A stretch of 64,000 bases of DNA from an uncultured Syntrophobacterales bacterium (GTDB taxonomy: Bacteria; Desulfobacterota; Binatia; UBA9968; JAJDTQ01), in assembly GCA_964630405.1 (NCBI GenBank), contig CAZVUC010000050.1:8948-72947 (forward strand), written 5' to 3'. The notes under the pieces were generated by a model. It searched no databases. It worked only from the letters and a program-made list of their open reading frames with translations, and was not told where the DNA came from. Within the stretch, counting starts at the first letter, position 1. Each line of letters begins with the position of its first letter. Below are positions 8,717-57,122 of the stretch, in pieces. The position numbers and the translations under genes are program-made.

Positions 8717-10780
8717 ATGAGCGACGTTAATCTCGACGAGCTGTGCATCAACACGATCCGTACCCTCTCCATCGACGGAGTCCAGCAGGCCAACTCCGGG
8801 CACCCGGGCACGCCCATGGCCATGGCGCCGGTGGCGTATTGCCTGTGGCAGCGTTTCCTGCGGTTCGATCCCGACGATCCCATCTGGCCCAATCGGGACC
8901 GGTTCGTGCTGTCGGCGGGGCACGCGTCCATGCTGCTGTACTCGATGCTCCATCTGACCGGGGTCAAGGGGGTCAGCAAGGACTACGAGACGCTGGGTTC
9001 CCCGTCCGTCCCGCTGGAAGCCCTCAAGCAGTTCCGCCAGCTCGACAGCCGCTGTCCCGGCCACCCCGAGTACCGCTGGACCTCGGGAGTGGAGACCACC
9101 ACCGGCCCGTTGGGGCAGGGGGTCGCCACCAGCGTGGGCATGGCCATCGCCGGGAGCTGGATGGCCAGCCGCTACAACCAGCCCGGCTTTGAGGATCTCA
9201 TCGACTTCGACGTGTACGCGCTGTGCGGCGACGGCTGCATGATGGAAGGAGTGTGCAACGAGGCGGCGTCGCTCGCGGGGCACCTGAAGCTGTCCAGGCT
9301 TTGCTGGATCTACGACAACAACCGCATCACCATCGAGGGCCACACCGCGCTTGCCTTCTCCGACGACGTCGCCACCCGTTTCCTGGGCTACGGATGGAAC
9401 GTGGTCCGGGTCGGCGACGCGAATGACCTGGAGATGCTGGAGCGGGCCTTCCGCACGTTCCACGACACCACGGACCGGCCGACCCTGGTGATCGTGGACA
9501 GCCACATCGGCTACGGCTCGCCCAACAAGCAGGACACCAGCGGCGCCCACGGCGAGCCCTTGGGGGTGGAGGAAGTCAAGCTCACCAAGAAGCGCTACGG
9601 CTGGCCGGAGGACGCCCGGTTCCACGTCCCCGACGGCGTGCGGGAGCATTTCCGGCAAGGTATGGGAGACCGCGGCAAGTCCCTTCGCGACGCGTGGTTC
9701 GACCGCCTCGAAGACTATCGGACACGGTATCCGGCGCTTGCGGACGGGCTCTACCGGATGCAGCACCGCCAGCTTCCCGATGGATGGGACCGGGACCTGC
9801 CCGAGTTCCCCGCGGACCCCAAGGGACTGTCGGGCCGCGACGCTTCCGGCAAGGTGCTGAACGCGCTGGCGGGGAACGTGCCCTGGCTCATGGGCGGCGC
9901 CGCCGACCTGGCGCCGTCCACCAAGACCCGCTTGACCTTCGAGGGGGCCGGCGACTTCTCGGCGGAGACTCCCGCCGGACGCAACCTCCATTTCGGCGTG
10001 CGGGAGCACGCCATGGCCTCGGTCCTGAACGGCATGGCGCTGGTGAAGGTGCGCGCCTACGGGTCGGGCTTCCTGATATTCAGCGACTACGCCCGGGGCG
10101 CCATCCGCCTGAGCGCCCTCATGGAGCTGCCGGTGGTCCATATCTTCACCCATGACTCCATCGGAGTGGGGGAGGACGGGCCGACGCACCAGCCGGTGGA
10201 GCACCTGGCCTCGCTGCGCGCGGTGCCGGGCCTGATGGTGATCCGGCCGGCGGACGCCAACGAGGTCACGGCCGCCTGGAAGGTGGTCATGGAGGCGCAC
10301 CACGAGCCGGCGGTGCTGGTGTTGACGCGCCAGGCGCTGCCGACCCTGGACCGCGGCCGCTACGCCCCGGCGGACGGCGTCGCCCGCGGCGCCTACGTGC
10401 TGGCCGATGCGCCGGACGGCAAGCCCGACGTCCTGCTGCTCGCCACCGGCAGCGAGGTGTCGTTGTGCGTGGAGGCCCACGAGGCGCTGGCGGCGGAGGG
10501 GATCAAGTCGCGGGTGGTGAGCATGCCCTGCTGGGAGCTGTTCGACGATCAGGACGAGAGCTACCGGAACAGCGTGATCCCGCCGGAGGTGACGGCCCGG
10601 GTGTCGGTGGAGCAGGCCTCGGTGTTCGGCTGGACCAAGTACACCGGCATCGGCGGACAACAGATCGGCATGCGGTCCTTCGGCGCATCGGCGCCGCTCA
10701 AGGACCTGCAGAAGAAATTCGGCTTTACCGCGGACGACGTGGTCGCGGCGGCCAGGGAACAGACCGGTCGGGCGCGGTAG
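8717..10780 (+). CDS. tkt: Transketolase.
   Basis: 687 aa. N-terminal TPP-binding motifs ([14 protein letters not shown]) and full-length colinearity with Tkt. Confidence 0.95.
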
Positions 10781-45485: not shown

Positions 45486-47753
45486 ATGCACAACGGCTCG
45501 CGGCTCAATCGTGAACTCTGGGGCTCGGTGGCTCTCGTGGCGGCCTGTTTCGCCGTGCTCAGCCTGGTCTCCTACAGCCCCCTGGACCAGTCCGTCAACG
45601 TCCCGTCCGGGGCCCGGGACCCGGCGAACCTCGGGGGAGTGGTGGGCGCCCATCTGGCGGACGTGTTGTTGCAGGGCCTGGGTCTCACGGCCTGGCTGCT
45701 GCCCGTCTTCCTGGTTCTGTTCGCGGTCCGGCTCTTTCGCCGGGAGCCGCGGAAGCTCGGGCTCCTCAAGGTCCTGGGATATGCGATGTCGCTGTGGGGC
45801 CTGGCCATCCTGGTCAGTCTCGTGCACGAGGTGGACGTGGCGCGGGAGAGCGGCGGTGTCCTGGGCGGGTTTTCCAAAGAGTTCCTGACGGAGATGTTCG
45901 GCTATGCCGGAACCTGCGCCATCACGCTGTTCCTGTTGCTGGCGGCGGTCATGCTGATGTCCCAGATGTCCATGCTGAGCTGGTGGAATCACCTCGCGGA
46001 CGCCCCCGGACAGCTCCGTTCCAGGATGGGCGCGACCACGGCGTCGGCGTGGCGCAAGACGGTGGAGGGCAAGCCGCCCGCCAACGTCAAGAAGGACCGC
46101 CGGGAATTCCGGGCGCCTCCCATCGTCGTCGAGGAGGAACCTCCGGCTCCGGAGGAAACCGCCAAGGGGCGCAGGAAGAAGGCCAAGGGCAAGAGCAAGG
46201 CGAAGTCCAGGCCCGAAACCGAGCAGTTCGTGTTCCCGGAGCTCACCGACGGCTACACGTTGCCGTCGACGGCCTTTCTCGATGCACCTCCGGAAGAAAA
46301 GGCCAGCATCGACAAGGGTACGCTGGAAGCCAATTCACTGATGCTTCAGCGGAAACTCCAGGACTTCGGCATCGAGGGCGAGGTGCTGGCGGTGAGGCCC
46401 GGGCCGGTCATCACCGTGTACGAGTTCCGGCCCGCCCCCGGCGTCATGGTGCGCCGCATCGTGGGGGTGGCGGACGACCTCGCCATGGCCCTCAGCGCCG
46501 TCAGCATCCGTATCCTGGCGCCGATTCCCGGAGAGTCCGTGGTGGGCATCGAAGTGCCCAATGCCCGGCGCGAAACCGTCTACCTGAGAGAGATCCTGGA
46601 AGACCCGGTGTACGCGGACTCCGACGCGATGTTGTCGCTGGCCCTGGGGAAGGACATCTCCGGGGCGCCGTTCGCCACGGACCTCTCCCGGATGCCGCAC
46701 CTGCTGGTGGCGGGCGCCACAGGCACGGGCAAGTCCGTCTCGCTCAACTCGATGATTCTCAGCGTCCTGTACAAGGCCACGCCGGACGACGTGCGCTTCA
46801 TCATGATCGACCCGAAGATGCTCGAGCTGACGCCCTATGAAGGGTTGCCGCATCTGTTGACGCCGGTGGTGACCGACCCGAAGGAGGCGCGGGCGGCCCT
46901 GTTCTGGGCGGTGGAGGAAATGGACCGCCGCTACCGGCTCATGCGCGACAAGCGCGCCCGCAATCTCGACAACTACAACCGCATCCTGGAACGGGAGCCG
47001 CCGCCGGAGAAGCCGGCCGCGGAGGACGCCGGCGACGGTTCCTCCGGGGGCGCGGAGGCGGGCGGCCGGCTGGACGGGCGCGAGGAGCTGGAGCACGGAC
47101 GGCTGCCCCGGATCGTCATCCTCATCGACGAGTTGGCGGATCTGATGATGTCCGTGGGACGTGACATCGAGGAACACATCACGCGGTTGGCGCAGAAGGC
47201 GCGAGCGGCCGGGATACACATGGTGCTGGCGACCCAGCGGCCGTCCGTGGACGTGATCACCGGTCTCATCAAGGCCAACTTTCCGGCGCGCATCTCGTTC
47301 CAGGTGACGTCGCGGGTGGATTCACGCACGATCCTGGACGGGCAGGGGGCGGAGCAGCTCCTGGGCAACGGGGACCTGCTCTTCCTGCCGCCGGGAACGG
47401 CGCGGTTGATCCGGCTTCACGGTCCCTTCGTGTCGGACAGAGAGGTCCGCAAGGTCACCGAGTTCATCAAGCAGCAAGGCCGGCCCCAGTACCGCCCGGA
47501 GATCCTGGAGGCCCGGGACGACGCCAACGGCGACTTCCTGAACGCCGACGACGACTACGACGAGATGTACGATCAGGCCGTGGCGGTGGTGACCGAGACC
47601 CGCCAGGCGTCCATATCCATGGTCCAGCGGCGCCTCCGGGTGGGATACAACCGCGCGGCGCGCATGATCGAGAAGATGGAGCGGGACGGAGTGGTAGGAC
47701 CCGCGGACGGCGCCAAGCCGCGCGAGGTCCTGGCGCAGAAGATCGAAGAGTAA
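45486..47753 (+). CDS. ftsK: DNA translocase FtsK.
   Basis: N-terminal transmembrane segments. Walker A AGATGTGKS. C-terminal gamma domain. Confidence 0.95.
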   Translation: MHNGSRLNRELWGSVALVAACFAVLSLVSYSPLDQSVNVPSGARDPANLGGVVGAHLADVLLQGLGLTAWLLPVFLVLFAVRLFRREPRKLGLLKVLGYAMSLWGLAILVSLVHEVDVARESGGVLGGFSKEFLTEMFGYAGTCAITLFLLLAAVMLMSQMSMLSWWNHLADAPGQLRSRMGATTASAWRKTVEGKPPANVKKDRREFRAPPIVVEEEPPAPEETAKGRRKKAKGKSKAKSRPETEQFVFPELTDGYTLPSTAFLDAPPEEKASIDKGTLEANSLMLQRKLQDFGIEGEVLAVRPGPVITVYEFRPAPGVMVRRIVGVADDLAMALSAVSIRILAPIPGESVVGIEVPNARRETVYLREILEDPVYADSDAMLSLALGKDISGAPFATDLSRMPHLLVAGATGTGKSVSLNSMILSVLYKATPDDVRFIMIDPKMLELTPYEGLPHLLTPVVTDPKEARAALFWAVEEMDRRYRLMRDKRARNLDNYNRILEREPPPEKPAAEDAGDGSSGGAEAGGRLDGREELEHGRLPRIVILIDELADLMMSVGRDIEEHITRLAQKARAAGIHMVLATQRPSVDVITGLIKANFPARISFQVTSRVDSRTILDGQGAEQLLGNGDLLFLPPGTARLIRLHGPFVSDREVRKVTEFIKQQGRPQYRPEILEARDDANGDFLNADDDYDEMYDQAVAVVTETRQASISMVQRRLRVGYNRAARMIEKMERDGVVGPADGAKPREVLAQKIEE

Positions 47754-47756
47754 CCC

Positions 47757-48467
47757 ATGATGACGATCGCATTGGACGCGGCGGCGGGCGCCCTCCCCGC
47801 GAGCCGCGGCGTGTCACGCTTCCCTGGTTGGATTGCGGCGGTCTTCTGCGCCGCCCTGTTGCTGCCGTTGCCGGGTCCCCGCGCGCAGGAAGCCGCGAAC
47901 ATCGTCCGGGAAGTGCAGCGTCGCTACGACGCCACGCGGGACTACAGCGCCGACTTCCGGCAGACCACCGAGTACCGCACCCTCAACCGGCGCATCGAAG
48001 GCAAGGGCCGGGTCTACTTCAGCAAACCGGCGAAGATGCTGTGGCGCTACGAGGACGCTGACGGACAGTTCGTCTTGTCCGACGGGCGCGCCCTCTACTT
48101 CTATCAGCCGGCCGAACGGCAGGTGATCAAGACCGCCCTCGGGTCGGTGTTCCGCTCGGACCTTCCGCTTTCCTTCCTGCTGGGCGTCGGCGATCTCGAC
48201 CGGGATTTCCGGGCAGAGTTGACGGCCTCCACTCCCGACGCCCACGTGCTGAAGCTCTTTCCCCGAAAAGCCAATACGGGCGTGACCGAGATCCAGCTCT
48301 CCGTGGACCCGGACAGCCACGACATCCGACAGGTCCTCATCGAGGATGCCGCGGGCAACGGTTGGACCTTCCGCTTCGACAACGTCCGCCACGGGGCAGG
48401 GCTGGATCCGGCGTTGTTCGAGCTGAAAGCGCCGCAAGGTGTCGATATCGTTGAGTTTGGGTCTTAG
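47757..48467 (+). CDS. lolA: Outer-membrane lipoprotein carrier protein LolA.
   Basis: Signal peptide. LolA fold motifs. Conserved ftsK-lolA synteny. Confidence 0.8.
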   Translation: MMTIALDAAAGALPASRGVSRFPGWIAAVFCAALLLPLPGPRAQEAANIVREVQRRYDATRDYSADFRQTTEYRTLNRRIEGKGRVYFSKPAKMLWRYEDADGQFVLSDGRALYFYQPAERQVIKTALGSVFRSDLPLSFLLGVGDLDRDFRAELTASTPDAHVLKLFPRKANTGVTEIQLSVDPDSHDIRQVLIEDAAGNGWTFRFDNVRHGAGLDPALFELKAPQGVDIVEFGS

Positions 48468-48627
48468 TGTCGTGTCCCACACAATGCTTTACCGATCTGC
48501 TTGTCTTTCTTGTCGTCGGCTGCGTTGCTCTTCCTCGCGTGGTGCCCGCCACTGCTCGTCATCGCGCCTTGCCGACAACAAGAAATCCTGCGCATCCCGG
48601 TAAAGCATTGTGTGGGACACGACACTA
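48465..48627 (-). ncRNA. Nested-hairpin repeat element, copy A. Candidate structured RNA on the minus strand.
   Basis: Perfect 30-bp outer inverted repeat (48465-48494 with 48598-48627). It encloses a ~100-nt core with an inner 15-bp stem (48506-48520 with 48571-85). The single inner-stem mismatch is C/A on the plus strand, which is G-U on the minus strand. The core is about 90% identical to copy B. The element starts at the TAG stop of lolA. Confidence 0.65.
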
Positions 48628-48731
48628 GGGCCGCGTCTCCTTCGGCAAGCCCCCACGGTGGTGGCCGCGTCTCTCGTATTGACTCCGTCTCGAAATAGTG
48701 GTGAATTGTGTCTCTTCCAGGAGACACGACC

Positions 48732-49157
48732 ATGAGGAAAGACGTTCTGAAGAAATTCCGGGAGACCCTCCTCGGCATGAAGGGTCAACTGCTGGAGGAT
48801 ATCCCGGACCGGCTCAAGCACGAGGTGGAGAGCTCCAAGGACGAGGGACGCGACACCTACGATTTGGCCAGCGACGAGCGGGATCGTGAGATCAACATGA
48901 TACTGAACGATCGCGAACGGGCGAAGCTGATGGCCATCGAGGATGCGCTGCTCCGGCTCGGCGAGGGTTCCTACGGCATCTGCGACGAGTGCGGGGAAGA
49001 TATCGGCGTCGGCCGGCTCAAGGTGATGCCGTTCACGCGGTTGTGCGTGCGCTGCCAGGAGGAGCTGGAGAAGGAATCCCGCATGACGAAGAACTTCGAC
49101 GACGATCGAACCTTCCGCCGGCTCACGACGACGGACACGGAAGAGGAAAGCTATTAA
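48732..49157 (+). CDS. DksA/TraR-family C4 zinc-finger protein.
   Basis: CxxC-x17-CxxC (CDECGEDIG...CVRCQ). Shine-Dalgarno AGGAGA before the ATG at 48732. Confidence 0.75.
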   Translation: MRKDVLKKFRETLLGMKGQLLEDIPDRLKHEVESSKDEGRDTYDLASDERDREINMILNDRERAKLMAIEDALLRLGEGSYGICDECGEDIGVGRLKVMPFTRLCVRCQEELEKESRMTKNFDDDRTFRRLTTTDTEEESY

Positions 49158-49228
49158 GGCTGTCCGGGTCGAATATTTCCACGCCTTGAGACGCGGCACC
49201 CCGCCGGCGGAAACCCGAGGAGGACGCC

Positions 49229-49627
49229 ATGAAGTACTTCTTTTCCAAGGATGAAGCCGAGGTCGTGCGTATCGAGGGCGAGGCGCCGCGCACCCTTTAC
49301 CCGTGCGTCGAGCCGGGCACGACCGGGACCCGCCAGTTCTCCATGGGCTTGCAGCAAGTCGATCCTCACAGCAAGATCCCCCTGCATTCCCACGACGAGG
49401 CCGAAGAGATCCTCTTCGTGATCGGCGGCCGCGCCATCGCCACGGTCGGAGACGAAACCGCGGAGATCGTGCCGGGTTCCGTCGTGTTCATACCCCCCAA
49501 GACCAACCACGGTTTCGTCAACGACGAAGACGAGCCCTTGTGGCTGACCTGGACCTTCTCGCCCCAGGGGTTCGAGGGCTACATCCGCGGCGTGGCGCAA
49601 GGCACCGTACAACTGAAGACCGTGTAG
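49229..49627 (+). CDS. Cupin-domain protein.
   Basis: Cupin motifs HSHDEAEEILFVIGG...PPKTNHGF. Shine-Dalgarno GAGGAGGA. Confidence 0.7.
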   Translation: MKYFFSKDEAEVVRIEGEAPRTLYPCVEPGTTGTRQFSMGLQQVDPHSKIPLHSHDEAEEILFVIGGRAIATVGDETAEIVPGSVVFIPPKTNHGFVNDEDEPLWLTWTFSPQGFEGYIRGVAQGTVQLKTV

Positions 49628-49734
49628 GCGGGTCACGCCGGTCGGCCCGCGTCCCCCGCCCACGGGCGCGTCCGGCGTTGCCGTGAAGACGTTCGAACGG
49701 CGACGGTCCGTGCATGGCCCGCAAGGAGGCTCGT

Positions 49735-50553
49735 ATGCTCGACGACAAGATTGGCTTCATCGGCGCCGGCAAGATGGGCAGCGCCATCATCAAGGGGATC
49801 CTGAGGGCCGGGCTGGTGGACCGGAGCCATCTGACCGCCAGCGATCCCGTCGAGGCGCTGGGGAAGGTCCTTGTCGAGGAAACCGGCGTCCGTTTCATGA
49901 AAGACAACATCGGTCTGGTGGAATCGTCGGACATCGTGGTGTTGGCGGTGAAGCCCCAGGTCATGGACGGCGTTCTGAAGGAGATCGCCGCGGCGCCGCT
50001 GGACGGGAGGCTCTTGGTCTCCATCGCGGCCGGGGTGCCGTTGAGCCGCATCGAGGGGTTGTTGCCGGATGGTGCGCGGGTCGTCCGGGTCATGCCCAAC
50101 ACGCCGTGCCTCGTGGGTCAGGCCGCGTCCGCGTATGCGGGAGGCCGGTGGGCCCTGGACGAGGATCTCGAGAGGGTGGGCAGGATTCTTTCGAGCGTCG
50201 GGGTCGCGGTTGCCGTGGAAGAGCATCATCTCGACGCCGTCACGGCGTTGAGCGGCAGCGGACCGGCGTACGTCTTCCTCTTCATCGAATCCCTCGCCGC
50301 CGGCGGCGTCCAGATGGGGCTCAGCCGGGACGTCGCGCTGAAGCTGGCGCTTCAGACGGTGTACGGTTCCGCCGCCATGGCCCAGGTCGCCGACGAGCAC
50401 CTGGCGGAATTGAGGGACGCCGTGACGTCCCCGGCCGGAACTACCGCCGCGGGGCTTTTCGCCCTGGAGCAGGGGGCTTTTCGCGCGACGGTCATCGACG
50501 CGGTGGTGCAGGCCACGGAACGTTCGGAAGCCCTGGGGCGAGGGGAACACTAG
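49735..50553 (+). CDS. proC: Pyrroline-5-carboxylate reductase.
   Basis: Starts MLDDKIGFIGAGKMG. Shine-Dalgarno AGGAGG 6 nt upstream. 272 aa. Confidence 0.9.
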   Translation: MLDDKIGFIGAGKMGSAIIKGILRAGLVDRSHLTASDPVEALGKVLVEETGVRFMKDNIGLVESSDIVVLAVKPQVMDGVLKEIAAAPLDGRLLVSIAAGVPLSRIEGLLPDGARVVRVMPNTPCLVGQAASAYAGGRWALDEDLERVGRILSSVGVAVAVEEHHLDAVTALSGSGPAYVFLFIESLAAGGVQMGLSRDVALKLALQTVYGSAAMAQVADEHLAELRDAVTSPAGTTAAGLFALEQGAFRATVIDAVVQATERSEALGRGEH

Positions 50554-50584
50554 TACGCGTGCTCGACGAACGGATAGCAGGGGT

Positions 50585-51616
50585 ATGATCCGGCACCATC
50601 CGATCCCATGGCGTCACTTCATGCGCGCCGCGCTGTTGCTGGCGCTCGCCGTCGGCGTCGCGGCCGGCCGCGCCCGGGCCAACCTGGAAGCTTTGCCCGC
50701 CGCCGAGCTGGAGAAGCAGGCCTACGCCAAGATCGTGGAGGCCCGTGGCAGCGCACGGGCGGAGCGTTACCCCGACGCGCTGACTCGGTTGGATGATGCA
50801 GTGACGCTGGCGGAGCAACTGGACGACAAGCTGCCGCTGGCGTTGGCGCTTCACAACAAGGGTGAAGTGGAGCTGCTCCGGGGCCGGCCGCTGGATGCCC
50901 TGAAAGCCTACTACAGGGTCTTGGGGGTCTACAGGCGGCTGGGGCACCAAGCCGGCGCCGCGCTGGTTCAGAAGCGGATCGGAATGCTGACGCGGCTGGT
51001 CAAGAAGCCCGAGAAGCCGGCCGCCGCCCCGCCTCAAGAGGCGCCCGCGGCGAAAGCCCCGGACCGCCTTTCGCTCGTCGACCAGGCGGTGGAGCGGATC
51101 CGCGCGCGGATCAGGTCCGCCGGTCAGAAAGCGCCCGAGAAGCCGGCGCTGGTCGAAACACGCCGGACGGTGGAACCGCCGGTACCCGTCGAGGCACGAG
51201 GAACCGGGGAGCCGCCGCCGCCCGTCCCGACAACCCCGCCCGAGGAGCCGCCGCAGCCGTCGGTCCAGGTGGCGCGAGCCGAGCCCCGATCCGGGGCGGA
51301 CAATCCACGGGAGTGGGCCTACGTGGAATCCCTCAAGAGGAAGATCAGCGCCCGGTCGCGGTATCCCGCCTACGCCAGGCGAACGGGTCAGCAGGGGACT
51401 GTGGCCGTTGTCGTCGCGGTGCGCGAGAACGGCGAGCTCGCCGGCGTCGAACTGTCCGAGTCGTCCGGCTTCATCGTGCTGGATGTGGAGGCCCTCCGCA
51501 ACGTCCGGGAGTCCGCCCCTTTCGGTCCCGTGCCCACCCGCGCGGTTCCGGGCCCCCTGACCGTCCGCATGACCGTCAGCTACACGCTGCCGGCCGCGTC
51601 CGGCCCTGCGCCCTAG
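50585..51616 (+). CDS. TonB C-terminal-domain protein with a Pro-rich linker and a TPR-like N-terminal region.
   Basis: Signal or transmembrane N-terminus. PEKPAAAPP and PPPPVPTTPPEEPP linker. C-terminus YPAYARRTGQQGTVAVVVAV...GPLTVRMTVSY. Confidence 0.65.
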   Translation: MIRHHPIPWRHFMRAALLLALAVGVAAGRARANLEALPAAELEKQAYAKIVEARGSARAERYPDALTRLDDAVTLAEQLDDKLPLALALHNKGEVELLRGRPLDALKAYYRVLGVYRRLGHQAGAALVQKRIGMLTRLVKKPEKPAAAPPQEAPAAKAPDRLSLVDQAVERIRARIRSAGQKAPEKPALVETRRTVEPPVPVEARGTGEPPPPVPTTPPEEPPQPSVQVARAEPRSGADNPREWAYVESLKRKISARSRYPAYARRTGQQGTVAVVVAVRENGELAGVELSESSGFIVLDVEALRNVRESAPFGPVPTRAVPGPLTVRMTVSYTLPAASGPAP

Positions 51617-51663
51617 GCGTATTCCCGACCAGCGCGCTTTCACCCGGGTCCAATGCGAGGACA

Positions 51664-52443
51664 CTAACGGACTGCGCCGGGCTGCGGGCCAGCCGATGGC
51701 GGGGTTCCGAGCGTGGTGATCTGGGCGAGAGCGAACGCGTGGCGCGGATGGAGCGCGAGGGCGCGGATGTAGTTGACGTCTGCCTGTCCGTGGAAGCCCA
51801 GGGCGGTGGCGTTGCGCGCCCGCAGCACATGGATCTCCGCCAGCCAGCGGTCGTCGGCCGCCAGTCTCGACTCCGCCACATCGAGAAAGCTCAGGGATTC
51901 GCGGTAGTTCTTCAGGAGGTAGTGTGCCCGGGCCACGAAATAGTGGCTGTAGGGGTTGGTGGCGTCCACGCCGATGGCGCGTTCGAAGCGGGCCAGCGCG
52001 GCCCTGTAGTCTCCGGTCCTGAGAAGATCCCGGCCCTGTTGCACCAGCTTCACGGAAGCCCTTCGCCGCGGCATGGTCGTGCCGTCGAAAGCCGCCAGGG
52101 AGGGCAACTCGTACGATCCGTCGGGGACGGGAGCGTCGATCGGGTCACGTCCCCGCTCGATGTTCACCGCGGCCTCCGGAACCCCCGGCGCCGCGACCGC
52201 GCCGGGGAGCGGCTCACGCACCGCCGGCGCTGGAGCCGGTACGGTTACCGACAGGTCCTCTTCATGGATCGTGCCCTGACGGAGGGCCGGAGACGGAGCC
52301 TCCTGGCCGGTAGGAGCGTTTTGCGGAAAGGCGATCCCGCACGCAAGGATTGCCGTCAGGAACACCGCCCCCGACGCCGCCCGTGCGAAGGGGAACGTCC
52401 TTTCTCCCGGCGTATCCGCTTTCGCGCTCACCGTTGTTCCCAC
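51664..52443 (-). CDS. TPR-repeat lipoprotein.
   Basis: Lipobox ILAC. TPR helices (AALARFERAIGVD...YHYFVARAHY). Confidence 0.5.
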   Translation of the reverse strand: MGTTVSAKADTPGERTFPFARAASGAVFLTAILACGIAFPQNAPTGQEAPSPALRQGTIHEEDLSVTVPAPAPAVREPLPGAVAAPGVPEAAVNIERGRDPIDAPVPDGSYELPSLAAFDGTTMPRRRASVKLVQQGRDLLRTGDYRAALARFERAIGVDATNPYSHYFVARAHYLLKNYRESLSFLDVAESRLAADDRWLAEIHVLRARNATALGFHGQADVNYIRALALHPRHAFALAQITTLGTPPSAGPQPGAVR

Positions 52444-52764: not shown

Positions 52765-53862
52765 ATGATCATCGATCTCGATTCCCATTTGCGCGAAGGC
52801 TATTTCATGGACGAGGTGTACAAGCTCGGCGAGCCGTTCGCGCAGTTCACGCCGAGGAAGGCCAACGACGAGGGCCGGAGCCACGGGACGCGCTTTATCC
52901 ATTCCCTCGAGCCGCTCAATCCCCAGGGGCTCGCGACCCACAAACACCCTTACATCTACGACCCGAAGGTGAACTGGCGCGCGGGCGAGATCGCCGAGCG
53001 GCAGGTGGGCGGCTACGACATGGCGCGCCGGCTGGAGGACATTCGCAGGGAACGGATCGACAAGGAGATCATCTTCCCCACCGGCATCAGCATCGCCACG
53101 CAGAACCAGGGCCGGCTCGGCGCCGCGGTGGCTCGGGCGTTCAACGACTGGGTGGCGAAACTCGTCAACGGCTACGAGGACACGTTCCTGCCGTGCGCCA
53201 TGGCCCCGGCCGGCTGCCCGGAAGCCATGCCGGACGAGGTGACGCGCTGTGTCAGGGAGCTGGGTTTCAAGGCCACCCATCTGGTCCCGTACGTGGGTTC
53301 GAGGAACGTGGACGATCCGATCTTCTATCCGTATTACGAAACGGTCCAGGACCTGGGCGTACCGCTCTTCTGCCATCCCAACAGCAACGGCGACCTGACG
53401 GACCGCTTCGACAACTTCTACAAGACCCACGTGATGGGACGGGTGATGAACTGCACGGCGGCGCTCATCGCGCTGGTGTTGGGCGGAGTGTTCGAGAAGT
53501 TCCCGCGCCTGAAAGTGGTCTTCTTCGAGTGCAGCGCGGAATGGATCCTCTTCTGGATGCACCGGATGGACGACGACTACGAATGGGCCAAGGACTTCTC
53601 CCAGCTCACGGGCCACCTGAGCATGGCGCCGTCGGAGTACATCAAGCGCAACTGCTACGTGACCTGCGAGGCCGACGAGCGCGACCTGGCGACCCCCATC
53701 AAGGAGTTGGGCGAGGACCGCATCTTCCTGGCCACGGACTACCCGCACTTCGACTCGGAATATCCCCACACGGTCTCGGGCATCGAGGAAAGGACCGACA
53801 TCACCGACGGCCAGAAGGCGAAGATCCTGGGCGGGAACGCCGAGCAGTTGTTGAATCTGTAG
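52765..53862 (+). CDS. Amidohydrolase-2 family (ACMSD/LigW-like) metal-dependent hydrolase or decarboxylase.
   Basis: 365 aa TIM-barrel amidohydrolase_2 motifs (MIIDLDSHLRE...HPN...FFECSAEW...DYPHFD). Confidence 0.8.
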   Translation: MIIDLDSHLREGYFMDEVYKLGEPFAQFTPRKANDEGRSHGTRFIHSLEPLNPQGLATHKHPYIYDPKVNWRAGEIAERQVGGYDMARRLEDIRRERIDKEIIFPTGISIATQNQGRLGAAVARAFNDWVAKLVNGYEDTFLPCAMAPAGCPEAMPDEVTRCVRELGFKATHLVPYVGSRNVDDPIFYPYYETVQDLGVPLFCHPNSNGDLTDRFDNFYKTHVMGRVMNCTAALIALVLGGVFEKFPRLKVVFFECSAEWILFWMHRMDDDYEWAKDFSQLTGHLSMAPSEYIKRNCYVTCEADERDLATPIKELGEDRIFLATDYPHFDSEYPHTVSGIEERTDITDGQKAKILGGNAEQLLNL

Positions 53863-53949
53863 GGCCTGCGTGTTACGAGCGGTTCGAGGGCCACGGGCTC
53901 ACGCCACGCGCAATCCCCTGACGGATACTCGCAGATCGGAGGAGCGGCC

Positions 53950-54126
53950 GTGAAGGATCGAATTCGAGAGATCGACAAGGAGTACGGGTTCAATCTCAGC
54001 GAGGATGAGATCGAGTCCATCGCAAAGCAGGCGGAGGAGACCCACCGGCTGCTCCAGGACCTCTACAAGGTCGACGTCGGCGGGGTCATGCCCATCATGA
54101 AGATCGACAAGCAGCGGAAGAGCTGA
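53950..54126 (+). CDS. Unlisted small ORF of 58 aa with a GTG start. GatC-like (AtzG-like).
   Basis: Shine-Dalgarno GGAGGAG 5 nt before the GTG. Sequence VKDRIREIDKEYGFNLSEDEIESIAKQAEETHRLLQDLYKVDVGGVMPIMKIDKQRKS aligns with the GatC helix-loop pattern. High-GC codon usage. Fills the 53863-54141 gap. Confidence 0.5.
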   Translation: MKDRIREIDKEYGFNLSEDEIESIAKQAEETHRLLQDLYKVDVGGVMPIMKIDKQRKS

Positions 54127-54141
54127 ACCACCCTCCACACC

Positions 54142-55416
54142 ATGGACGACCGCACCAAGGAACAGATTCTCCAGCACATCGACGGCCAGGAGCTGGCCGA
54201 GCTCACCCGTGATCTGGTGGACATCCTGAGCCCCACCGGCTCGGAGAAAGAGATCGGCGAGTTCATCCTCGACTGGTACGGACGCAACGGCCTCAAGCCC
54301 GTCCGCCAGGAGATCGACCCCAACCGGGTGAACGCGGTGGGCGTGCTCCAGGGCACCGGCGGGGGCGTGTCGCTGATGATCAACGGCCACATGGACACGA
54401 GCTTCACCGGGCAGGAGGACGACCTCATGCTGTGCCGGGAGCTCGAGCCCCAGAGCGAGCTCCGCGGCGCCATCCGGGACGGCAAGGTGTTCGGCCTGGC
54501 GGCGTCCAACATGAAGTCGGGGCTGGCGGCCTTCATGGTGGCCGGCAAGGCGCTCAAGAAGAGCGGCGTGGCCATCAAGGGAGACCTGATCCTGGCGGCG
54601 GTGGCGGGCGAGATCTCCCGCACCCCCATCGGGCCGTACCAGTCCGGACTCTACCGCGGCGAGGGCACCGGCACCCGGCACCTGCTCACTTACGGCGTCC
54701 AGTCCGACTACGCCATCGTCGCGGACCGTTCGGCCCTGTCCATCATCTGGACCCAGTCCGGCGTGGCCCAGTTCAAGATCGACACCTTCGGCAATCCCCA
54801 TGCAGCCTGGGGCGTCACCCGGAAGCAGGAGCCGCCCGAGGAGCACAACGCGGTGCTGAAGATGTCCAGGGTGGTGCAGGCGGTGGACGCCTGGGCCGAG
54901 GAGTTCGAGGCCAACCACGTCTACCAGTCGGCCAACGGCCCGATCATTCCAAAGGTCAACCTCGGCTCGGTGCAGGGCGGCGCGCCCTACCGGCCCAACT
55001 ACCACCCGGGCATCTGCTCGCTGTACGTGGACGTGCGCATCCCGCCGGAGTTGCGGCCCCTCGAGGTGCAGCGGCAGTTGCGCGCGGTGATGGACGCCAC
55101 CGGCTACGAGTACGACATCGGCATGTACACGTCGAAGATGGGCTACGAGGCCAAGGGTATCGAGCCCGTGGTGGAGGTCATCGAGGAGACCCACCAGGAG
55201 CTGTTCGGCGAGAAGACCACGCCGGCCAACACCTTCCGCTCCAGCATCTGGACCGACACCAACATCTACAACGAGATGGGCATTCCCGCCTGCAAGTTCG
55301 GCCTCGGCGGCGGCCGGTTCACCACCCGGTCGGAGCAGATCGACATCGACGAGATCGTCCGGGCGGCGAAGATCTACGCGCTGTCGGCGGCCACCATCTG
55401 CAACTGGGCGCGATAG
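54142..55416 (+). CDS. M20-family peptidase (ArgE/DapE/ACY1-like amidohydrolase).
   Basis: 424 aa. M20 metal-ligand motifs (INGHMDT...GEGTGTRH...). Confidence 0.85.
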   Translation: MDDRTKEQILQHIDGQELAELTRDLVDILSPTGSEKEIGEFILDWYGRNGLKPVRQEIDPNRVNAVGVLQGTGGGVSLMINGHMDTSFTGQEDDLMLCRELEPQSELRGAIRDGKVFGLAASNMKSGLAAFMVAGKALKKSGVAIKGDLILAAVAGEISRTPIGPYQSGLYRGEGTGTRHLLTYGVQSDYAIVADRSALSIIWTQSGVAQFKIDTFGNPHAAWGVTRKQEPPEEHNAVLKMSRVVQAVDAWAEEFEANHVYQSANGPIIPKVNLGSVQGGAPYRPNYHPGICSLYVDVRIPPELRPLEVQRQLRAVMDATGYEYDIGMYTSKMGYEAKGIEPVVEVIEETHQELFGEKTTPANTFRSSIWTDTNIYNEMGIPACKFGLGGGRFTTRSEQIDIDEIVRAAKIYALSAATICNWAR

Positions 55417-55437
55417 CCATCGGAGCAGGGACGACGC

Positions 55438-55944
55438 ATGGAACCGGTACTGGCTGAGAAGATCGTCCACGGTTTGAAGGCGGCCGGCATCGATTTCCTG
55501 ACCTACCTGCCGGAGAGCCGCCTGAGCCAGATCCTGCCGCTCCTGCGCGAGGACGGCACCGTGCAGATGGTGGCGGCCGCCAGCGAGCAGGAGGCCATCA
55601 CCATGGCGGCGGGCGCGGCCCTCGGCGGCAAGCGGGTGGCCTGCTACATGGAAAGCACGGGGCCCTACGTCTCCGCCTACTCCCTGCTCACCGTGGGCAA
55701 GCAGATGGGCGTGCCGATTCTGCTGCTGATCGGTTTTCTGGGCAGTTTCGCCGATCAACGGAACAGCTTCCTGTACGTGACCATCGGCATGCGGATGATC
55801 CCCACCCTCGAAGGGCTGGGGCTCGAATACCGCGTCATCGAGAACGCCGACAATCTCGAGCGGCACATCCGGGACGCTCAGCGGGTCAGCGACTCCATGC
55901 GGGCTCCGGCCGCCCTGATCTTCTCCGGGGAGTTCGCCCGATGA
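55438..55944 (+). CDS. TPP-dependent decarboxylase, N-terminal subunit (sulfopyruvate/phosphonopyruvate decarboxylase ComD-like).
   Basis: TPP_enzyme_N-like, 168 aa. ATGA overlap with the beta-subunit gene. Confidence 0.75.
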   Translation: MEPVLAEKIVHGLKAAGIDFLTYLPESRLSQILPLLREDGTVQMVAAASEQEAITMAAGAALGGKRVACYMESTGPYVSAYSLLTVGKQMGVPILLLIGFLGSFADQRNSFLYVTIGMRMIPTLEGLGLEYRVIENADNLERHIRDAQRVSDSMRAPAALIFSGEFAR

Positions 55945-56546
55945 TCCGGCGCGACTGTCTTGACCTCATGGCCCCGTTGATGACCGATCAACTGGTGCTC
56001 TCCTCGCAGAGCGGCCAGCGCATCGAATGGTTCCACCTGGCGCCGGAGCACGAGGGCAACCTGCTGGTGGGCATGATGGGGTGCGCCACCGGCGTGGGCA
56101 TGGGACTGGCGCTGGCGCTGCCCCGCCGCCGCGTCATCGTGCTGGAGTCGGACGGCAGCGTGCTGCTGTCGCTGTTCAATCTTCCGACCCTGGGCAACCT
56201 CAACCTCGCCAACCTGACGGTGTTCGTGTTCGACAACGAGGTCTACAGCGGCAGCACCATGAGCGAGCCCACGGCAACGGCCGGGAAGACCGACCTCGCC
56301 GCCATCGCCCGGGCGTCGGGGATCGAAAACGCCGTGACCGTGGACGACATCGACGGCTTCAAGGAGCACGGCCTGCCGGGCGTGACCGGGGAGGGGCTCC
56401 ACTACGTGGTGTGCAAGGTGGAGGAGAGCCTCATCCACCGCGAGATCTCGCGCCCCAACGTCGACCTGGCGGAGTACAAGTACCGGTTCGTTCGCTATAT
56501 CGAGCGCACCGAGGGCATAACCATTCCTTTCGTCGGCCTGGGATAG
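55941..56546 (+). CDS. TPP-dependent decarboxylase, C-terminal subunit (ComE-like).
   Basis: TPP-binding GDG...N motif (LESDGSVLLSL...NLTVFVFDNEVY). 201 aa. Confidence 0.75.
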   Translation: MIRRDCLDLMAPLMTDQLVLSSQSGQRIEWFHLAPEHEGNLLVGMMGCATGVGMGLALALPRRRVIVLESDGSVLLSLFNLPTLGNLNLANLTVFVFDNEVYSGSTMSEPTATAGKTDLAAIARASGIENAVTVDDIDGFKEHGLPGVTGEGLHYVVCKVEESLIHREISRPNVDLAEYKYRFVRYIERTEGITIPFVGLG

Positions 56547-56612: not shown

Positions 56613-57122
56613 ATGGCAACCAACGATGAAGCGGTCAAACGGCAAGAAGCCGAGAAAACCGAGTACGACTGGGGCACGCTGTGGCCGCACTATCACAAGG
56701 AGAGGATGAACTGGGCCACGGGTTTTCGCACCCGGGGTGACGTGGACATCCTGTTCCTGTCCGGTTCCACCGGACGCGATCCGTTCGAGGACGCGCCCTG
56801 CCGGGAGCCCAACGAGGAGCGGGCCGGCCGCGGCAAGGTGGTCGGCGGCATCAAGGAGCAGACCCGTCAGGCCTGGCAGGACATCAAGGACAACCTCGAA
56901 ATGATGGGCGGCGAGTTGAAGCACATCGTCATGATCCGCTATTTTCTCACGCGCCGCGAGGACGTGTTCGACATGCGCGACGAGATGTATGCGTTCTTCG
57001 AGGAGCACGAGCCCGACCTGCGGGCCCATCCCCGTCCCGCCACCCTGCTGCGCGGCGTCGGCATCGATCTGCAGGACATGCTCATCGAGATCGAGGCCTG
57101 GGCTGCAGTACCGCGCAAGTAG
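56613..57122 (+). CDS. RidA/YjgF/TdcF family protein.
   Basis: Shine-Dalgarno AAGGAGG. RidA fold, 169 aa. Confidence 0.85.
   Translation: MATNDEAVKRQEAEKTEYDWGTLWPHYHKERMNWATGFRTRGDVDILFLSGSTGRDPFEDAPCREPNEERAGRGKVVGGIKEQTRQAWQDIKDNLEMMGGELKHIVMIRYFLTRREDVFDMRDEMYAFFEEHEPDLRAHPRPATLLRGVGIDLQDMLIEIEAWAAVPRK

Follow-up and report, generated by a model that had tools for sequence, protein, structure and literature searches.

A short conserved gene ahead of an M20-family hydrolase gene

In the 64,000-nt stretch of Binatia DNA analysed here (the window; 66% G+C), the 279 nt that separate the stop of an amidohydrolase-2 gene (53862) from the start of a gene for an M20-family hydrolase (54142) hold a short open reading frame (ORF), whose 58-residue product, VKDRIREIDKEYGFNLSEDEIESIAKQAEETHRLLQDLYKVDVGGVMPIMKIDKQRKS, resembles the N-terminal half of GatC. 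Its coordinates, GTG start, length and GGAGGAG-N5 Shine-Dalgarno (SD) sequence, as well as the size of the gap, had been given in the initial annotation and were all confirmed in the sequence (Table 1). The ORF had also been called unlisted, which holds for a track of ORFs of at least 60 aa, but not for public gene callers, which already call its homologues; one that is 93% identical (P0004) carries the NCBI name "MAG: hypothetical protein OXF11_05830" (MAG, metagenome-assembled genome).

Several observations show that the small ORF is a real gene. Its G+C content by codon position (0.59/0.25/0.86) follows the pattern of the flanking genes (0.85–0.96 at third positions), a pattern missing from the two alternative frames of the same stretch. 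Homologues form 29 clusters (58–97% identity) in a collection of 5.8 billion proteins and are mostly of exactly 58 aa. When the family alignment was scanned against one genome per GTDB species and neighbours were mapped by tblastn, 40 loci were recovered, nearly all from Binatia or "Deltaproteobacteria" MAGs; near-identical loci (small protein 91–98% identical) come from Candidatus Binatia MAGs. Compared loci from other genomes and metagenomes are designated by L-numbers, and we distinguish clade A, with a small protein at least 67% identical to that of the window (29 loci including the window), from clade B (50–65%). Homologues at syntenic loci, a check that the initial annotation had named, are indeed present: the ORF is intact in all 29 syntenic loci, window counted (55 codons, with a shorter C-terminus, in L034), the GTG start is kept in 28 of the 29, and GGAGG occupies the SD position in every one. 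Taken together with the low ratio of nonsynonymous to synonymous substitution rates (dN/dS) reported below, these features show that the ORF did not arise by chance. On the minus strand, a 655-aa ORF (53899–55866) overlies both the small gene and the M20 gene; its codon-position G+C, together with the homology found for the genes on the plus strand, marks it as an antisense shadow ORF of the kind typical at 66% G+C.

Downstream of the small gene, the order small gene, M20, alpha and beta subunits of a thiamine pyrophosphate (TPP) enzyme (TPPα and TPPβ) and RidA is invariant in clade A (29 genome loci and three metagenome loci), with RidA syntenic and 92–99% identical across the clade. The initial annotation had described a five-gene neighbourhood in which amidohydrolase-2 was included, and of this the part from the small gene to RidA stood, whereas amidohydrolase-2 proved variable by synteny: it adjoins the small gene in some clade A loci, lies 2–3 kb off in others and is missing from about half (L001, L003, L014–L017, L025, L028–L031, L034, L036 and L041). 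As a conserved partner it was ruled out on these grounds.

When the 160 nt preceding the small ORF were aligned across the 29 loci, a promoter-like block emerged, TTGA...GCGTGTTACGAGC, which all of them share although the sequence beyond it is unrelated. Its consensus, TTGACA-N17-TGTTACGAG (TTGACA-N17-TGT-TACGAG), is followed by a leader and then by the SD sequence. The -35 hexamer reads TTGACA in loci without an adjacent amidohydrolase-2 gene and TTGAAT in the window, where it lies within the last amidohydrolase-2 codons. We also note that the edge of the variable upstream region in the window falls inside this hexamer. Scanning with strict sigma-70 and terminator consensus sequences between amidohydrolase-2 and the small ORF returned nothing, and we regard the conserved block as a predicted promoter. 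Because this block and the SD sequence stand upstream of the small ORF and the sequence beyond is unrelated, the small ORF appears to be the first gene of the five-gene unit, with amidohydrolase-2 outside it. A riboswitch or other leader RNA ahead of the small ORF was ruled out, as the leader has no Rfam match at E≤1, an RNAalifold consensus of 15 leaders reached -1.5 kcal/mol with zero covarying pairs, and several loci have a deletion in the middle part of the leader.

Table 1. Features at the small-gene locus, in coordinates of the window.
Feature	Position	Strand	Remarks
Amidohydrolase_2 gene, variable upstream neighbour	52765..53862	+	PF04909; outside the conserved unit
Promoter-like block (predicted)	53851..53879	+	-35 TTGAAT 53851–53856, 17-nt spacer, extended -10 TGT-TACGAG 53871–53879
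Shine-Dalgarno sequence GGAGGAG of small ORF	53938..53944	+	5 nt ahead of GTG
GatC-like small protein gene	53950..54126	+	GTG start, TGA stop, 58 aa; predicted head of the conserved operon
M20-family hydrolase, putatively NaaA-like	54142..55416	+	Pfam Peptidase_M20 and M20_dimer; starts 15 nt past the small-ORF stop
TPP-enzyme N-terminal-domain subunit (alpha), split 2-oxoacid decarboxylase-like	55438..55944	+	PF02776; syntenic throughout clade A
TPP-enzyme C-terminal-domain subunit (beta)	55941..56546	+	PF02775; overlaps alpha by 4 nt; syntenic
RidA/YjgF-family protein	56613..57122	+	PF01042, E=3.6e-11; final gene of the five-gene unit

The small protein resembles the N-terminal half of GatC

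The likeness to GatC claimed in the initial annotation stood at the level of the family, although the window peptide on its own falls below the PF02686 (GatC) threshold. A profile built from 43 family members (A2, broader than the alignment A1 used for AlphaFold2) found Aquifex GatC as its top match in the PDB (3h0l_C, E=1.9e-5), colinear from query residues 2–50 to GatC residues 4–52 of 94, and 26 of the 43 members match PF02686 at E≤0.1 (best E=2.2e-7). The AlphaFold2 model (mean predicted local distance difference test score, pLDDT, of 80) consists of a helix (residues 2–12), a loop, a second helix (18–40) and an unstructured tail (41–58), with pLDDT above 90 over residues 1–30, and thus displays the two N-terminal helices and following extended segment that mark the GatC fold. 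Akin to this, the top three PDB entries retrieved with the model by Foldseek are all GatC chains (2f2a_C, 3h0l_C and 9a62_B; template-modelling scores 0.62–0.66), matches whose E of 0.3–0.5 is weak when taken alone. In light of the family profile match and the fold matches, we identify the small protein as a truncated member of the GatC superfamily, equivalent to the N-terminal half of GatC and presumably non-catalytic. Other matches, to Nif11-leader, FGAR-AT-linker, EF-hand and PheRS-B1 (E 0.004–0.13), were set aside as low-complexity helical similarities without contextual support.

When 1.84 billion cluster representatives were searched with a profile, just 71 relatives were retrieved at E≤1e-3. 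The family is therefore small and distinct from canonical GatC, and its members form an unnamed subfamily, largely confined to Binatia and soil metagenomes. It is accordingly very improbable that the gene encodes the canonical GatC of the tRNA-dependent amidotransferase GatCAB, a reading that might be drawn from the weak PF02686 and TIGR00135 matches and from the name "GatC" that some sources give to relatives. The 58 residues align to GatC 4–52 alone and the C-terminal half is missing, the TIGR00135 score is 13.7 bits against a cut-off of 47.1, and 71 proteins are not what the ubiquitous GatC family would yield. In GatCAB structures the C-terminal half of GatC contacts GatB; no gatB gene was noticed in the annotated neighbourhoods of relatives (L040, L042, L048 and L051), and the partner amidases described below fall under the gatA cut-off. 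The protein thus shares with GatC the homology of the N-terminal half, the predicted helix-loop-helix with its extended segment and, in its relatives, the pairing with a GatA-like protein, but it has only about 60% of the length of GatC (~95 aa) and ends before the C-terminal segment with which GatC closes its belt around the interface of GatA and GatB (PMC4027206).

In relatives the small gene accompanies an amidase gene

Clade B loci have an amidase-signature gene (480 aa; PF01425, E up to 1e-117) immediately after the small gene or overlapping it, a layout that matches GatC-GatA and AtzG-AtzE and is found at L004–L011, L037, L039, L040 and L043–L051, as well as in 16 metagenome loci with the order M20-small-amidase. 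Outside clade A, the readable downstream gene is an amidase-signature gene every time, with the single exception of L042. The clade B amidase misses the cut-offs of both the gatA model (359 bits; cut-off 481) and the AtzE family (329 bits; cut-off 461), and its best PDB matches are GatA (E=6.7e-83) and AtzE (6c62_A, E=3.8e-59). Nearby genes include those for NMT1-type binding proteins, split TPP α/β subunits, several Amidohydro_1 proteins and hydantoinase A/B, and the recurring neighbours (amidase, luciferase-like (LLM) protein, hydantoinase A/B, Amidohydro_1 and RidA) suggest the catabolism of nitrogenous compounds, possibly cyclic or aromatic ones.

The converse survey, a metagenome scan with the M20 protein, gave 80 orthologue loci (56–97% identity). 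The small gene precedes M20 in three of them, all of clade A type, and follows it in the order M20-small-amidase in 16, where it abuts the amidase; five further loci run from M20 to the small gene and then to the contig end, one has amidase-M20, and one has M20-amidase without a match to the small gene. As many as 35 (56–73% identity) carry M20 alone, with no small gene within at least 300 nt upstream and at least 400 nt downstream, and 19 have flanks too short for judgement. Across 120 other loci the small gene therefore appears to track the amidase-signature gene and not M20, the small-M20 order being confined to one lineage. These results speak against the suggestion of the initial annotation that the small protein scaffolds the M20 or the amidohydrolase-2 enzyme.

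They bear likewise on a possibility that is in essence the one raised in the initial annotation and that we consider unlikely: once its adjacent amidase gene was lost, the GatC-like protein may have taken on the role of an accessory or scaffold subunit for the M20 enzyme or for the split TPP decarboxylase. The strict synteny of the five genes in all genome and metagenome loci of clade A would fit such a recruitment, as would the short distance (10–65 nt in most loci) from the small-gene stop to the M20 start and the presence of TPPα/β genes beside small-amidase pairs in L010 and L048–L051. Against it stand the 35 orthologue loci in which M20 has no small gene nearby, and the loci of the order M20-small-amidase, in which the small gene keeps to the amidase despite having M20 as its other neighbour; in addition, the closest solved relative of the M20 enzyme, NaaA (see below), is deposited as a single-protein assembly, and no M20 enzyme with a GatC-like partner is known to us. 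A little less likely again is the stronger form of this idea, in which the GatC-derived mini-protein is now a dedicated subunit of the M20 enzyme or the split TPP decarboxylase; if true, it would be the first transfer of the GatC scaffold between unrelated hydrolase folds.

The arrangement in relatives recalls AtzG. To our knowledge, AtzG is the sole characterised GatC-derived accessory protein of non-tRNA amidases. It belongs to the 1-carboxybiuret amidohydrolase AtzEG, encoded in atzDGEHF of Pseudomonas sp. ADP, and is likewise small, non-catalytic and descended from GatC; AtzE is insoluble without AtzG, and AtzEG descended from GatCA (PMC6219798). As with AtzG, the genes of the relatives lie immediately upstream of a GatA-derived amidase-signature gene that is not a tRNA amidotransferase and sit in catabolic clusters for nitrogenous compounds. 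The resemblance to AtzG proposed in the initial annotation thus held for the gene layout of the 50–65%-identical relatives, but sequence similarity between the family of the window protein and AtzG is undetectable: no AtzG-type family is among the Pfam and NCBIfam matches of the window protein at E≤10. Further differences are the score of the relatives' amidase on the AtzE-family model (329 against 461 bits) and the position of the partner gene, the cis layout seen in more than 30 loci of relatives being replaced in the window and the rest of clade A by one with M20 downstream. No match to AtzH (DUF3225/NTF2) was found among the genes scanned in L040, L042, L048, L051 and the window operon. 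The term "GatC/AtzG-like" is therefore best supported as a statement about family and architecture and not as strict membership of either family.

Separation of the small gene from the amidase gene

How the small gene came to precede M20 is suggested by two syntenic loci. L040 has the order LLM gene, small gene, amidase, M20; past M20, hydantoinase B/A genes run in the reverse direction. L042 has an LLM fragment (9557–9898), the small gene, a 32-codon ORF and an M20 gene whose product is 76% identical to that of the window. The short ORF (10210–10308), MKALDLEELTI/VFQVAHAYEKAAEWYKRNPQI, corresponds to amidase residues 1–11 fused in frame to residues ~459–479, and this stub is a preserved deletion intermediate toward the small-M20 order. 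Separately, the M20 orthologue of L040 (3723–4919) is ~50 residues short in the dimerisation/lid domain compared with those of L042 and the window, and may be a decaying gene or an assembly variant.

In the lineage of the window the amidase gene is found elsewhere on the chromosome. Searches that started from a cis-linked amidase and continued with the clade A orthologue of that protein identified unlinked 480-aa amidases. Nine complete chromosomes (L012, L014, L015, L021, L025, L026, L028, L031 and L035) carry them, all from what we call the main group, the subset of clade A that includes the window. These amidases are 82–100% identical to each other and 65–69% identical to the cis-linked amidases. 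The genome nearest to the window, OY761465.1, has the amidase gene at 1.70 Mb and the small gene at 3.15 Mb; in OY729432.1 the corresponding positions are 1.01 and 2.00 Mb. Clade A genomes yielded only one small gene each in the pattern scan, and no small ORF adjoins the unlinked amidase gene in the five loci inspected (L052–L056). Six-frame inspection and tblastn at E≤0.05 (E≤10 for L052) detected no remnant of a small ORF upstream of the amidase in L052–L054. The unlinked amidase lies downstream of an F420-type LLM gene, at a spacing of 105–450 nt, in four of the five loci; in L056 the preceding ORF encodes 123 aa without a Pfam match. Since the amidohydrolase-2 of the window is merely 23–25% identical to the Amidohydro_2 genes beside the unlinked amidase, these genes provide no evidence for a shared ancestral cluster.

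Two side observations concern these loci. The LLM-amidase spacers of L052 (1572–1778 and 9780–10000) and L054 (5555–6000) contain tandem palindromic repeats resembling repetitive extragenic palindromic (REP) elements, …GTAGCG(G/A)AGTCGAAGGGCG…, and L052 has undergone a segmental duplication, with two amidase copies ~8 kb apart.

Constraint on the small protein and its position ahead of M20

The small gene is under purifying selection, and in the main group the constraint on it equals that on M20. Pooled Nei-Gojobori estimates of dN/dS were 0.167 over all 29 syntenic loci and 0.097 in the main group, where the neighbours gave 0.097 (M20), 0.061 (TPPα), 0.096 (TPPβ) and 0.064 (RidA). For the relatives linked in cis to an amidase gene the value was 0.166; the main group is thus no less constrained than the cis-linked copies, consistent with a protein that still serves an amidase. 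Moreover, every residue that is invariant in the amidase-linked relatives is kept in the window protein (R6, E11–F14, L16, E18, E20, I21, Q27–E29, L38, D42, P48 and D53). One sublineage departs from this pattern: in L001, L034, L036 and L041, where the small ORF occupies roughly positions 10001–10177, dN/dS is 0.52 for the small gene and 0.12–0.20 for its adjacent genes. The chromosomes of L034, L036 and L041 are within the protein collection, and none is among the amidase carriers in the matches listed, which cover large clusters in part.

For the recruitment of the small protein by M20 or the TPP enzyme, these data cut both ways. A constraint equal to that on M20 would be expected of a partner of M20, and the rapid evolution of one sublineage could mean adaptation to a new partner (for a dedicated subunit, it would mark such adaptation as ongoing), but the retention of all residues that are invariant beside amidases argues for the old partner. 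It is also improbable that the protein has an independent function, for instance as a small regulatory or adaptor protein for which GatC ancestry is irrelevant. A helical hairpin of 58 aa might interact with many molecules, partner binding is deduced and not observed, and one sublineage evolves fast; yet Pfam and NCBIfam scans gave no DNA-binding or other domain signal, the same residues are conserved in amidase-linked and M20-linked copies, and the metabolic gene context is consistent.

The position of the small gene may have a second consequence. M20 lacks an SD sequence in all clade A loci (L001, L003, L012–L036, L041, L057, L064 and the window), where the spacer ahead of it is C/A-rich (...ACACC-ATG; 54127–54141 in the window), whereas a GGAG-type SD precedes M20 in 44 of 68 orthologues outside this lineage. 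As M20 is SD-less and the gap is short (240 nt in L030 and L031, 10–65 nt in most other clade A loci), a secondary role in cis is plausible, in which translation of the small ORF probably also helps to load ribosomes onto M20. One might go further and suppose that the ORF is a translated leader, kept mainly to feed ribosomes to M20 by termination-reinitiation, with a vestigial peptide. The loss of the SD from M20, the short intercistronic gaps and the high conservation of the SD and GTG of the small ORF would all be accounted for; however, the dN/dS of 0.097 and the invariant family residues show that the amino-acid sequence itself is selected, in addition to any selection for translation, and the gap in L030 and L031 is too long for simple coupling. 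As coupling is, besides, compatible with a role in trans for the protein and does not exclude it, we hold a mere leader to be quite improbable, even more so than an independent function. Read-through of the TGA stop into M20 was rejected as well: the frames coincide in the window, but the spacing shifts by 1–2 nt in other loci.

A proposed accessory subunit that may act in trans

With moderate confidence, and by analogy, we propose that the small protein is an AtzG-like accessory subunit that serves the unlinked amidase and is co-regulated with the M20/TPP/RidA operon. Members of the subfamily are normally encoded just upstream of a GatA/AtzE-like amidase, often overlapping its gene, and would presumably bind and stabilise that amidase, as AtzG does for AtzE and GatC for GatA. 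In the Binatia lineage of the window the pair has been split, the amidase gene now lying ~1 Mb or more away behind an LLM gene, and the small gene has stayed with a former cluster neighbour, the NaaA-like M20 gene, where it would be the first and strongly translated gene of an operon with its own promoter-like region. From there the protein would act in trans on the unlinked amidase, and its supply would tie amidase activity to the expression of M20, TPPα/β and RidA within a single catabolic route for a nitrogen compound.

Several points weigh against this proposal. (i) The window protein by itself misses the thresholds of both PF02686 (14.9 bits, cut-off 23, E=0.031) and TIGR00135 (13.7 bits, cut-off 47.1, E=0.059). 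(ii) From the AtzEG entries 6C62 and 6C6G, profiles A1 and A2 retrieved the amidase as the sole chain at E≤10. (iii) The amidase was confirmed on nine of the 14 complete main-group chromosomes, and tblastn found no amidase-signature gene in the 64 kb of the window. (iv) Stoichiometric accessory subunits are usually encoded in cis, and a separation of ~1 Mb or more is unusual. (v) The strict adjacency to M20 throughout the lineage and the close spacing would equally fit a new, M20-related role.

If the proposal holds, an unnamed subfamily, largely of Binatia and soil bacteria, joins the GatC-derived accessory proteins of non-tRNA amidases. It would offer a natural example of a split accessory-subunit gene that remains under strong selection although the gene of its presumed catalytic partner is ~1 Mb or more distant, with a deletion intermediate of the split preserved in a related genome. 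We regard the case as a modest curiosity, in which an accessory protein of a known kind is encoded in an unusual split arrangement, and not as a new kind of system. Two practical consequences follow: constructs for the expression of these Binatia amidases should include the distant 58-aa gene, and in annotation a partner is not to be inferred from adjacency alone.

Enzymes of the operon and the surrounding synteny

The initial annotation had envisaged a pathway of deacylation, oxo-acid decarboxylation and imine quenching. As to the first step, the closest solved relative of the M20 enzyme is the 5-nitroanthranilate aminohydrolase NaaA (5k8m_A; 35% identical across 410 residues, E=3.5e-90), which deaminates its aromatic substrate by hydrolysis (PMC10306065, PMC11903332), and not an enzyme of the ArgE/DapE type. 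The alignment to NaaA is full-length, and both enzymes depart in the same way from the classical Asp and Glu-Glu ligands of M20 proteins, with a non-canonical Asn in xxNxK and GEI for EE; the corresponding motifs in the window protein read ASNMKSG and AGEIS. The M20 enzyme therefore looks NaaA-like rather than like an ArgE/DapE-type N-acyl-amino-acid deacylase, and we suggest that it be treated as such. JGI labels members of its 90%-identity cluster ArgE/DapE-like, a label that is probably misleading. The genomic context differs from that of NaaA: in the naa cluster the next step is a 5-nitrosalicylate dioxygenase (PMC10306065), whereas the window M20 gene is accompanied by genes for a TPP decarboxylase, RidA and the GatC-like protein.

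For the second step, a split ComD/ComE-like TPP decarboxylase had been named. TPPα scored 72.5 bits on TIGR03845 (sulfopyruvate decarboxylase alpha; cut-off 148) and TPPβ 87.8 bits on TIGR03846 (cut-off 221.5); the pair is related to sulfopyruvate and phosphonopyruvate decarboxylases, yet lies far below their cut-offs, and this assignment was not sustained. Because the M20 enzyme is NaaA-like and the TPP subunits score below the cut-offs, the proposed pathway is not established.

Around the operon, conserved housekeeping synteny (window 45486–52443; L003 1–6254) extends over genes for FtsK, LolA, a DksA-type zinc finger protein, a cupin, ProC, a TonB_C protein and a tetratricopeptide repeat (TPR) protein. 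A variable hot-spot separates the TPR gene from the small ORF and is occupied by amidohydrolase-2 in the window, by unrelated genes in L003 and by an SNF2 helicase gene in L001.

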